A stretch of DNA of 63,816 bases, the filler included, from Collodictyon triciliatum (Eukaryota): assembly GCA_043381765.1 (NCBI GenBank). It is 4 parts of 4 records of this genome, joined end to end, with 100 filler letters (N's around TTAATTAATTAA, not from the genome) between each part and the next. Parts side by side here need not be neighbours in the genome. Positions count along the whole stretch, not along the records: positions 56,169 to 63,816 come from JBHJMP010000900.1; 3 more parts are not named here. The stretch is one strand, 5' to 3'. The position numbers and the translations under genes are program-made. Numbering within the stretch: the first letter of the stretch is position 1; every line of letters starts with the position of its first letter. The notes under the pieces are model-generated. The model made no database searches. It saw nothing but the letters and a program-made list of their open reading frames with translations, and was not told the origin of the DNA. Positions 56,451-59,400 of this stretch are shown here, one piece after another.

Positions 56451-59400
56451 TCACTGAATGACACACTCATTTGACGTCAGGCCCTTACCCATTCCTTCCT
56501 CACTAGAATCAGGGGAATCAAGTGAATCAGGAGCATCATTTGTGGACTGTGTTATCATTAGGCCAGTGACATCAAATTCATTTTCCCAGGCTAACCGAGC
56601 AGCTAAGTCTGATTTTGGTCTTAGATTTGGTGCTTGGTGGGTTCTGGGTGACATTTGGTTACCATCACGACCAGATATTGAATCTTCATCTTTTCGTTGG
56701 TCACGATTCATATCTACAGGTCTATTACCACGTAATTGTTGGGCAGAGCTTTGGGACTTACCTCGGGCGGACCAGAGCCCTGAAAAGAATTTAGACGAAG
56801 AGTCCCTCGGTAGCACACTTTCATTTCTCTGCTCCTTCCTTTCCACAAGATCTGGATATTGTGGAGATACTCTTGGAGATACCTTTAGGGGTTCTCTTGG
56901 GGACAAAGGTCGGTCTCCAGATTGAGAAGAGTACCCCTCAAAAGGTCTACTCGGATGAGCGAGTGTCTCAGATGCAGGTTGAGCTTGATCTGCGAGTTTC
57001 TTTGCTGTCCCAGTCGGGTCACTCCCAGAGCTTTGTTGTGTTGTTGTTTTAGATCTCCCTCTCGGAGAAAGAAAGCCTGAAATTATCGTCGAAGGGCTGG
57101 CCTTCGGATTTGAAATCTCTTGATCACTTTGCCCTTGCTTGTTCGAAAATATCTTTCTTGAAGAAAGGGGCAGTTTTGAGGTAGGTGGGGGTTCAAGTTG
57201 CTTCTTTAAAGAGACGCTGGGTCGGGGGGATGCTGGCTCTGGAGGGATGCTTTCGAGTGGATTTTCTTTGTTGCTTTTGTGATTAGATGCTGGAGCCAAT
57301 ATCTCTGCATTCCAGTTGATTGCCGTCATCGACAAGGGAGTTGGTTGGTGGTTGGGACATGAGTTTGACCGAACTCGAGCTTGGGCGTGAGATAACAACA
57401 TGACGTCTCTAAAATAGGCTGTAGAAAACATGGAGTTGAAAGCTACTCCTGTCACAGACGCGATATATGGGTGATTTACGATGATAGATGATTTGGATAT
57501 TTGCCCATCGGCCCCTGAGTGCCTCAAAGCGAACGACCCGTCTTTCATGAAAATGTGATACGAAATATGGGAGCCAACATCCAAGTTGTTGTTAAAGCCT
57601 TGTATCTTCATTATAAAGTCTTCTCTTTCTACCGACAAATTAGGTTGCCTAATGAGCCCTTCAAATATGTATACTAAATTCTTACTACGCCCAGTTATTA
57701 TATATATCGTGAGTCCCGGTCCCACAAGTTTGTGGTTGTATGCCATAATGACATTATTTGAAGCGACTTTCTGATTCACCGGAGCTTCTTCTCTTTTCAA
57801 AACTGAATTGGCTCGATCCCTCGAAGAAGGGATAAATTGATTACCTTGTAAGCCGGCGACATTTCCTCCAACTGGAGAGGAATAAGAAGCATCAGCAAAC
57901 AAGTACACCACTATATGTGAGCCAAATGAAGTAAAATGAATGCTCCCATTCCCAGGAGAGGGGAAGCGCCCTGGTATGATTGTGGCTTCGATTTTTTTAC
58001 TGATGCTCGACGTGCAAAATGCAAAACCTTTCTCATTACTCTGAAAATTGAAATACTTCCACGATCGACTCATAACTTCATCACCTGCTACACTAGCTTT
58101 ATTTTCATCACCAAGATGCGGCTCATCAACAAACCTCAACACACCATCAATAACACCTTTTCTCTGGAAATATATGTTCATCTTTTCTCTTATCTTCGGG
58201 GATAATTCCTGATAAATGTTCTAAAAGTTTTTTAAATTCAAATTAGTACTTTATCTACCTTGATTGGAGTGCAGGGAGAAAATAATTTCTCTAATTTATA
58301 TGGAAAACATGTGATCGATGTATGTATGTCACCAACATGAGGCATTATGATCTTATGAATGTATGATATTGGTATCAGCATGGGTAAATGAAGCTCCGGA
58401 ATAAGATGAGGGTCAGTCTTTCTCCATCTTTCCTTAATCTCTTGTAAGGTTTCACATCTTGCATTTTCGCGGGTAGACTTCAAGTAAAACATAAAGTCCG
58501 AAGCTATAATTTCCTCCCATCCTGGAGTTGTGGCGTGTAATTTACTTTTATGAAATGCTTGGACTCCGTCCTCATTGCTCTCGAGAAGCCATGGCCTCCC
58601 TTCAATTTGATTTCCACGAATAAATCTTGTTCCAGCACATGGTGTTGCATTCGTGTCCGGGTGATAGAGGATTTCCTTTTTGAAAATTATAGCTATTGGT
58701 CCATAGTAAAAGCCCTAAACAGAGAGTCTTCATTAGTTTTTCATCTTTATTTTCGATAAAGCGAGAACAGAGTTTCCCTACATGTATTTATTTATTTACA
58801 TAATTTCATGTATAATTGTCTGATGTATAAGCATAAAAACCTTATTTGCCCCTAAAACCGCAAAAACATGTGAGTTTGTGCCCAATCGAGCATCGTCTAC
58901 ATTCTTAATTCCCATAGGGGTCTTATTCAAATTGTAGCAAGCTTCTGCCACATCAACTGCTATCTCTTCAAGTTCTTTAATATTCTCATCATTTAGTCCA
59001 TTTTCTTTACAGCACCGTTTACTAATTTTTAATTCAGGTATCGAATTTTCGTATTTTTTCAAATTTCCTGATTCTCGGCGACTTATGCTATCCAAATGAT
59101 TTTCAACCGTCAATACAATTAATTTCTCAGCATGTCTTATCCTCTCTTGTGATACTTGATGTATTTCTCCCAACCTAGGCTCAATAATTGCCCTTACTCG
59201 TGGATGCTTTCGTAATTCTTCAGATATATAATCAGGGTCATGTAGATGGTTCATATATTCGCTGGACATCACCATTCCATGTGTAATTATTGATTCGAAT
59301 ATTTTTTTTGTACACCGGTGGACTGGCTTCATATTCTTGATAGCATTTATTAACGCCTTCGGTGGTTTTCCATATTTACTCATAAATGGTGCCAGTCGAG

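Follow-up and report, generated by a model that had tools for sequence, protein, structure and literature searches.

The 63,816-nucleotide stretch of Collodictyon triciliatum DNA analysed here (the window; assembly GCA_043381765.1) contains, in its part from record JBHJMP010000900.1 (positions 56,169 to 63,816), a minus-strand gene for a 2139-residue protein with an intron-split ADP-ribosyltransferase (ART) domain. Residue conservation and the modelled fold of a homolog indicate that this is a real ART of an unannotated family, probably active and set in a new architecture. In the same chain the ART is fused to a macrodomain of the bacterial poly(ADP-ribose) glycohydrolase (PARG) type and to an array of PBZ-like fingers, a context absent from the original prediction, made from the sequence alone, in which the domain was noticed. 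It is very probable that the domain has the activity of a catalytically competent mono-ADP-ribosyltransferase. The fuller reading, of a mono-ADP-ribosyltransferase guided by poly(ADP-ribose) (PAR) within a reader-writer-eraser protein and acting on a protein target, has as a whole about an even chance of being right.

The part of the window that holds the gene comes from a scaffold of a eukaryotic assembly 75 Mb in size. The whole gene model (56451..63706) comprises eight exons (63706-63539, 63415-63185, 63089-63029, 62868-62660, 62550-62521, 62413-58841, 58714-58337 and 58220-56451) without an internal stop; all window features given below lie on the same, minus strand. Its product aligned end to end with P0005, a transcript-derived homolog from Diphylleia (residues 4-1881 to 6-1846, 34.7% identity). 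From N- to C-terminus, the order of domains is a weak RRM-like repeat, the PARG macrodomain, about ten PBZ-like fingers, the ART, a galectin-like sandwich, a Ser/Pro-rich tail and a CaaX box. The gene is transcribed: contigs from runs X1 and X3 lack introns 63538-63416 and 62520-62414. These runs were taken as RNA by guess, no listed run being recorded as RNA; their contigs also have ends that resemble what we take to be cDNA adapters. The contigs also span 59047-59536, 57688-58144, 57259-57491 and 56426-56708, with 58145-59046 uncovered, and the remaining five introns are predicted.

The first half of the ART domain (58841..59446) consists of N-terminal helices, strand 1 with a His, a helical insert, an Asp motif and strand 2 with a Phe, while the second half, in exon 7 (58337..58714), carries the motifs YG, HPD, RPW, KLH, D-x-H and E-x-H-L-P. 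The four peptides quoted in the original prediction were recovered in the order it gave, with the His codon CAC at 59320-59318, LGTNSHVFAVLG ending just before 58841 and FYYGPIAIIFKKEIL running from 58711; the Glu codon was likewise present, as GAG at 58396-58394. Conservation was counted over 120 full domains out of 222 sequences, a sample rich in rotifer near-relatives. The strand-1 His (residue 1265, in VHRC; 59318..59320) is His in 113 of these, the Asp of D-x-x-L-G-T (residue 1407; 58892..58894) is Asp in 113, and the strand-2 Phe that forms the middle of an H-F-E triad (residue 1417, in HVF; 58862..58864) is Phe in 111. The catalytic-type Glu-1531 and His-1533 of the Glu-Leu-His motif (58388..58396) are each kept in 112. 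Both the strand-1 His and the Glu are present in 109 domains and both are lost in four, the paralogs L012 and L013 among them; His alone is lost in three and Glu alone in four. The window copy retains all of these residues (H, D, F, E, H), and the H-F-E pattern agrees with the strand-1 His or Arg, strand-2 aromatic residue or Ser and strand-5 acidic residue by which an ART is recognised. Because catalytic-type residues are kept in 111-113 of the 120 domains, the domain is likely active, as had been proposed. The stretch between strand 1 and the Asp motif is a poorly conserved helical insert of about 110 residues (58919..59254), corresponding to helices 63-163 of the homolog model described below.

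The two halves are separated by a 126-nucleotide GT..AG intron of phase 0 (58840-58715), which lies between LGANK and GFYYG. Its GC content is 27%, against 37-40% in the flanking exons, it holds four in-frame stops, and a CTAAT branch-like site is found 22 nucleotides upstream of the acceptor. Among eight in-frame, stop-free GT/AG pairs nearby, 58840/58715 gave the best-scoring and the only ungapped alignment to Diphylleia P0005. In paralogs of the same genome, GT occurs at the same codon in six of six with the upstream exon at hand, and AG precedes the same Gly in five of six with the downstream exon, the exception being L012. Homologous proteins are continuous across the junction in 119 of the 150 listed, out of 177 representatives. 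Read-through of the intron was rejected on account of the four in-frame stops. Since the donor (GTTTTT) is weak and the RNA contigs leave the junction uncovered, none of those from X1 and X3 spanning 58841/58714, splicing at this site is well inferred and not seen. The intron-split domain described originally is present, its intron being shared by the paralogs and the homologs being continuous across the junction; the accompanying statement that an open reading frame track misses the domain needs a small correction, as the first half is visible as the end of a 1207-codon open frame.

A second conserved intron, which went unnamed originally, follows IIMPH (58336-58221; 116 nucleotides, phase 0), and GT is found at the same codon in six of six paralogs. 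Two Diphylleia isoforms terminate exactly at the two ART intron sites. The donors at 58840 (GTTTTT) and 58336 (GTTGGT) are both non-consensus. Intron retention at 58840 or 58336 could yield forms without a complete transferase.

For the fold comparison, a model was built of the homolog P0023 (366 residues, almost the ART domain alone, 32% identical to the window domain) using a 51-row alignment. The model has a mean predicted local distance difference test (pLDDT) score of 94 and a predicted template-modelling (pTM) score of 0.90, and adopts a split beta-sheet ART fold in which H43, F183 and E299 fall in predicted strands 42-46, 182-186 and 299-302. In a Foldseek search, the Salmonella effector SopF was the sole match at E ≤ 0.001 (E 9e-4), with DarT (E 0.3-1), PARP2 (1.4) and OspC3 (1.9) among the weaker rows. 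A search of 48,161 chains returned ART folds in all nine top rows (Z 9.2-11.2), the first unrelated row having Z 8.1; these values are near the range of common arrangements, and rows within 1 Z unit count as tied. SopF came first (Z 11.2, root-mean-square deviation (rmsd) 4.2, 206 residues aligned; Z 11.7 in a second comparison, 204-206 residues over the two), followed by two DarT2 entries (both Z 10.8, rmsd 3.4-3.5, 172-175 aligned), Tpt1 (Z 10.5, rmsd 3.0, 108 aligned), DarTG (10.2), DarT1 (10.1), OspC3 (9.8, rmsd 4.5, 200 aligned), CopC (9.6) and a MBP-OspC3 entry (9.2). No PARP was among the top 50 by Z in this search. The SopF and OspC alignments begin at residue 1 of the model and are about 30 residues longer than that of DarT. 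Because nine independent ART entries agree with the conserved residues, the assignment of the modelled domain to the ARTs is firm. A fold search of BFVD found nothing at E ≤ 0.001; its rows at E 0.004-0.05 were phage and giant-virus proteins, all uncharacterised, together with a single DUF3626 protein. The modelled fold supports an unnamed ART family that sides with SopF(DUF3626), OspC, DarT and Tpt1 within the superfamily. The structural comparison that the original prediction had proposed, run here on P0023, placed ART folds on top and agrees with its view of an ART fold nearer DUF3626 and DarT than PARPs, which lie far down.

No Pfam or PHROG model covers the ART domain. Pfam and NCBIfam matched no ART model on the separate exons, and a Pfam scan of 37 family members at E ≤ 1 gave no match to DarT (PF14487), DUF3626 (PF12294), AbiGi (PF10899) or OspC (PF06128). 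Of the originally proposed kinship with DarT, AbiGi and DUF3626, the likeness of fold to SopF and DarT stands, but none of the three Pfam models matched any of the 37. None of the proteins scanned matched the PARP catalytic model (PF00644) within its ART region, and the middle residue of the triad is Phe, not Tyr. PHROGs gave scattered single matches on the 37 members, none common to them. When the first half of the domain alone served as query for a word-indexed search, none of 630 candidates was confirmed, and a PDB sequence search with the ART alignment returned just de novo helical designs and the PBZ of APLF (E 0.16-5). By tblastn, neither a phage member nor P0023 matched anything among GenBank phages. 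A peptide-pattern search of GTDB gave 17 pattern matches, none confirmed; being insensitive, it does not show absence from bacteria. Family searches of the genome itself with DUF3626 and DarT were blank and so were their controls, which makes them uninformative. In an ESM Atlas feature search, OspC (0.91), DUF3626 (0.86-0.90) and DarT (0.85) emerged as leads only.

SopF (PDB 7DN8/7DN9) is the best structural match, with an alignment that runs from the N-terminal helix to the last strand. It carries a DUF3626 domain (PMC6682159), and is described as an ARF-dependent enzyme with an I-Y-E triad that modifies a Gln of ATP6V0C (PMC10333799). Identity to SopF is 12-13%, the family has H-F-E in place of I-Y-E, and it lacks a PF12294 match; in contrast to the effector, the window protein is an endogenous eukaryotic multidomain protein and contains the 110-residue insert. 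The arginine ADP-riboxanases OspC3 and CopC (PF06128; PDB 7WR5, 7XN4) resemble the family in fold (Z 9.6-9.8 over about 200 residues) and share its His-Phe-Glu triad, an Asp 10-11 residues before the Phe, an aromatic-Gly pair and E-x-H-x-P, and the order of the family's motifs is that of OspC3 H143, D177, F188, F211-G and E326-Y-H328-I-P. In CopC the triad is H137-F183-E325, with aspartates D172 and D230, and E326 and H328 of OspC3 are reported as essential (PMC9239266). D177 of OspC3 acts as the base on the ribose 2'-OH and D231 activates the arginine (PMC11598138). Asp-1407 is a candidate counterpart of OspC3 D177 and CopC D172, an equivalence drawn from spacing and a non-significant profile alignment. 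The family differs from the riboxanases in the lack of an Asp at the D231-like column and in having a beta-sandwich instead of an ankyrin or calmodulin-binding module, neither of which was seen in it. Membership of the OspC family was considered and dropped, the profile comparison being non-significant with or without the insert; judged from sequence, the likeness to OspC is a resemblance, not membership. DarT (PF14487, DUF4433; PDB 7OMV, 7YK3, 8BAQ), for which residues R51 and H119 have been described (PMC9967889), is alike in fold (Z 10.1-10.8, rmsd 3.4-4.0, 172-187 residues) and in its strand-1 His and strand-5 Glu. It differs in that no Pfam match links the two and that the family has about 100 residues between YG and the Glu. 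Whereas the partner of DarT is a DarG or NADAR gene, that of the family is a fused PARG-type macrodomain, and no NADAR was seen in the proteins scanned.

The macrodomain (60317..61027) matched PF10021 (E=4e-8, 34.2 bits against a cut-off of 23.5) and, below cut-off, TIGR02452 (E=2.5e-5), and the top PDB sequence matches of the family profile were DrPARG and TcPARG. The bacterial-type PARG signature is GGG-x6-8-QEE (PMC4245714). Of 35 homologs in which the ART and the macrodomain both align, 26 keep it intact. It is absent from the degenerate window copy, in which two glutamates are kept while GGE replaces GGG, IEE replaces QEE and F-N-F replaces the G-C-G loop; P0005 and paralog L008 have lost the loop as well. 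About ten PBZ-like Cys2-His2 fingers follow (59483..60217), nine found by pattern and a tenth by eye; 500 shuffles gave a mean of 0.04 matches and a maximum of one. The Pfam model zf-CCHH had no match in the window protein and matched nine of 28 homologs scanned. Upstream of the macrodomain, the RRM-like repeat (61508..61687) is a lead only, given by Pfam RRM_PARP14_3 below cut-off (E=0.024). Similar sub-threshold matches (E 0.02-0.14) occur in four of eight family N-termini scanned (the window protein, L008, L010 and P0005), with none in those of L009, L012, L015 and P0008. Downstream of the ART, the exon of the window itself was modelled (mean pLDDT 75) and shows a galectin or concanavalin-like beta-sandwich (57390..58030), with Z 12.1-11 to the GH32 sandwich, CBM66 and galectins.

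The Ser/Pro-rich tail ends in a C-terminal CaaX box (CVIQ-stop, 56454..56465), which is spanned by the RNA-type contig at 56426-56708. CaaX boxes also terminate L008 (CVVQ; L008 277-291) and Diphylleia P0005 (CTLQ), and were found in no other cluster among 252 family proteins, many of them partial; other paralogs terminate in PBZ fingers. In a quick tree of 86 of the 120 domains, the window copy, L008 and P0005 form one branch with a Shimodaira-Hasegawa-like approximate likelihood ratio (SH-aLRT) support of 98. This one branch combines the CaaX box with loss of the macrodomain G-C-G loop and loss of the terminal PBZ fingers. The combination suggests a shift to a membrane-bound, writer-only form.

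The genome contains at least eight copies of the family, with seven matches to the second half of the ART and one more to the first half, and 12 PARP-family matches, all on contigs other than that of this gene. Two of the six complete copies, L012 (G000:C1247) and L013 (G000:C127), lack the ART His and Glu. With the second-half exon as query, 177 representatives were retrieved at E ≤ 0.001. The homologs that could be named, from 20 clusters looked up and 83 matches, belong to Diphylleia rotans (the closest), bdelloid rotifers (Rotaria, Adineta, Didymodactylos), Pharyngomonas and Mastigamoeba. The PARG domain is present in 31 of 38 long representatives, and at least three PBZ-like fingers in 37 of them. 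In the 35 homologs where the two enzyme domains are aligned, both are intact in 21, only the ART in seven, only the PARG in five and neither in two. Extra domains occur in single homologs: GBP, LRR-Roc-COR, TPR, WWE, RING or a second, classical ART. P0081, P0118, P0111, P0094 and P0009, from eukaryotes including a rotifer, fuse the ART to LRR-Roc-COR, GBP, TPR, WWE or an R-S-E-type ART (PF01129), which are immune-type architectures.

An Adineta vaga protein with a bacterial-type PARG and PBZ repeats has appeared in print, in a report whose account of this architecture mentions no transferase domain (PMC4245714). The same PARG and PBZ layout is found in the ART family, to which the A. vaga proteins P0022 and P0228 belong; one of these may be the published protein. 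PARP14 and other macro-PARPs likewise unite an RRM, a macrodomain, a reader of ADP-ribose and an ART within a single polypeptide, and PARP14 is reportedly both a transferase and a hydrolase. PARP14 differs in belonging to another ART family, in its MacroD-type rather than PARG-type macrodomain, and in having WWE rather than a PBZ array. The layout shared with macro-PARPs is convergent.

About six distinct prokaryotic-type proteins carry the ART domain with the same residues where aligned, and no PBZ or PARG was found in the five of these checked. Phage members adjoin head-region genes, one lying after terminase and portal genes and another, which carries InPase (PF18823), near a head protease gene. 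ARTs near phage head genes are thought to be packaged and injected with the DNA (PMC9503650). Like the ARTs of phage polyvalent proteins (Tox-ART-HYD2-like, ART-PolyVal), phage members of the family are C-terminal domains of polyvalent-type proteins encoded in head-packaging regions. The published polyvalent-protein ART has an H-Y-D triad (PMC5512222), in contrast to H-F-E here, and no such Pfam model matched the family. In the quick tree, three phage domains form one branch amid eukaryote-type sequences, with weak surrounding support; because the tree is unrooted, it is not used to argue for a transfer from phages to eukaryotes or the reverse.

PAR is the ligand of PBZ fingers and the polymer that PARG cleaves (PMC4245714). 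We propose a model in which activity, activation by PAR, a protein target, membrane location and a role in defence are all conditional. The PBZ array would bind existing ADP-ribose chains, made by ordinary PARPs, and thereby dock and recruit the enzyme or switch it on. His and Phe would hold NAD+, the Glu of E-x-H would drive the loss of nicotinamide, and the conserved Asp would help to place the acceptor. The beta-sandwich would select the target, most likely a protein, to which the ART would transfer one ADP-ribose from NAD+, and in members with an intact macrodomain this would trim or remove ADP-ribose and reset the signal. In the window copy, the CaaX box takes the place of terminal PBZ fingers; because its eraser looks crippled and it has this box, it may serve chiefly as a writer anchored to a membrane, with defence against engulfed microbes as a plausible role. 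A protein target is preferred on three counts: the structural matches of greatest length are to effectors that modify proteins, the motif pattern is theirs too, and the chain ends in a CaaX box.

Several observations weigh against this model. The folded protein is P0023, at 32% identity, and not the window's own spliced domain, and the ESM Atlas scores are in the weak range. The profile of the family scored 13.6 against that of OspC, with a mean of 13.9 for 60 block-shuffled controls, no significance being reached even when the insert was left out, and the hhalign probability was 0.1-0.2%. The column read as OspC3 D231 is Ala in 103 of the 120 domains and Asp in none, so by that reading, in which the equivalence of the column follows from spacing and the non-significant alignment, the enzyme is not an arginine riboxanase. 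The putative CaaX box is a four-residue motif confined to one branch. DarT and Tpt1, which act on nucleic acid, tie with SopF within about 1 Z unit, and the weak RRM matches and the PARG fusion fit an RNA target equally well.

The last two points lead to a different acceptor, namely a base, phosphate end or ribose 2'-OH of RNA or single-stranded DNA. The RRM-like repeats would then bind this substrate and the fused PARG would take the mark off again, the whole acting as a one-chain, toxin-antitoxin-like defence module. DarT aligns at a lower rmsd (3.4, Z 10.8) than SopF, Tpt1 reaches Z 10.5, RRM-like matches recur in four of eight N-termini, and phage versions could target host nucleic acid. 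PARG-type macrodomains, bacterial ones included, are described as reversing ADP-ribosylation of RNA 2'-OH groups and phosphate ends (PMC11833690). On the other hand, the DarT Pfam model matches none of the 37 members, the Atlas ranks DarT (0.85) under OspC (0.91) and DUF3626 (0.86), the fused hydrolase is PARG-type rather than DarG or NADAR, and the CaaX tail of the window copy points to membranes. We consider a nucleic-acid target unlikely. The action on nucleic acid suggested originally is a candidate activity only: the best or tied-best folds include the protein-modifying SopF, OspC3 and CopC beside DarT and Tpt1, and the residue pattern is like that of OspC and CopC.

Most long homologs pair the ART with a domain that reads PAR and with a glycohydrolase that cuts ribose-ribose links, a company that would also suit a non-PARP chain builder that adds ADP-ribose to a ribose hydroxyl of ADP-ribose, its own PBZ array reading and its own PARG cutting the oligo- or poly(ADP-ribose). 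The strand-5 Glu is kept, and, judged by spacing, the conserved Asp would correspond to OspC3 D177, the base on the ribose 2'-OH (PMC11598138). Against such an enzyme, PARPs are not close in fold (PARP2 at Foldseek E 1.4; none in the top 50 by Z), real PARPs of the genome can supply PAR, and the phage members lack PBZ and PARG. We also know of no polymerase on the SopF-OspC-DarT-Tpt1 branch of ARTs, which we count against a chain builder, and we regard one as improbable. A regulated NADase, or a maker of a small ADP-ribose derivative, that drains NAD+ as PAR accumulates and so serves in cell death or signalling would be compatible with the kept catalytic-type residues, with the fusion of some homologs to immune-type sensor domains, and with the presence of NADases in the H-Y-E and R-S-E clades of ARTs (PMC9503650); the close solved matches, however, are all transferases, and the extra conserved Asp, the D-x-H motif and the fused sandwich suggest recognition of an acceptor, leaving this option quite improbable. 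Loss of His and Glu in two of six complete genome copies (L012, L013) and the degenerate macrodomain next to the ART in the window copy would fit an inactive ART-fold scaffold or a sensor of NAD+ or ADP-ribose. Yet the window copy keeps every conserved residue and 109 of the 120 domains, from protists to phages, keep both His and Glu, which makes an inactive domain very improbable.

A broader and bolder idea, which we think unlikely to hold in full, is that these proteins constitute a PARP-independent eukaryotic ADP-ribosylation system shared with phage virion proteins. Here an effector-like ART would make ribose-ribose-linked ADP-ribose, as short chains on proteins or as a mark on RNA 2'-OH groups, which the same chain would read through PBZ and remove through PARG, a second, convergent and self-contained cycle of writing, reading and erasing. 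Writers of intracellular ADP-ribose in eukaryotes are mostly taken to be PARPs, sirtuins and Tpt1. The family adds to these an endogenous, expanded (at least eight copies) and transcribed putative writer, the nearest solved folds of which are bacterial effectors and toxins (SopF, DarT, OspC). In bdelloid rotifers and several lineages of protists, proteins that databases list as microbial-type PARG domain-containing also possess this unannotated predicted transferase, and the rotifer and phage members offer tractable versions for biochemistry. The identity of the acceptor would reveal whether phagotrophic eukaryotes employ effector-like ADP-ribosylation in defence, and whether ribose-ribose-linked ADP-ribose arises outside the PARP family. 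No description of this ART family was found in the literature searched, which leaves out most subscription literature, and supplements of surveys of viruses and polyvalent proteins may list the domain.

Some further observations concern single relatives. In L012, a TGA in frame immediately precedes the second-half exon, and the PARG motif is degenerate; together with the loss of the ART His and Glu, these features suggest that L012 may be a pseudo-enzyme or a pseudogene. Tail to tail with this degenerate paralog lies a gene (L012 1-2361) that we take to be enolase-like from the motifs GANAILGVS, SHRSGETED and QIKTGAPCRSER. In the ESM Atlas, feature scores of 0.90-0.93 were obtained for unnamed bacterial clusters of about 350 residues (Saccharimonadota, Planctomycetota; 0.92-0.93) and for giant-virus DUF5846 and DUF5863 clusters; tentatively, these bacterial and giant-virus clusters may be further unrecognised ARTs. 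The phage polyvalent-type proteins L017 and L019 appear to contain a HEFAH metallopeptidase-like motif and a ParB-like or InPase domain, the InPase recognised by profile and the rest by eye. Also by eye, a second, shorter ART-like stretch (H-G-T or H-I-T ... S/Y-L) seems to lie upstream of the family domain in L017:460-3846 (= L021) and L019:2309-5521.

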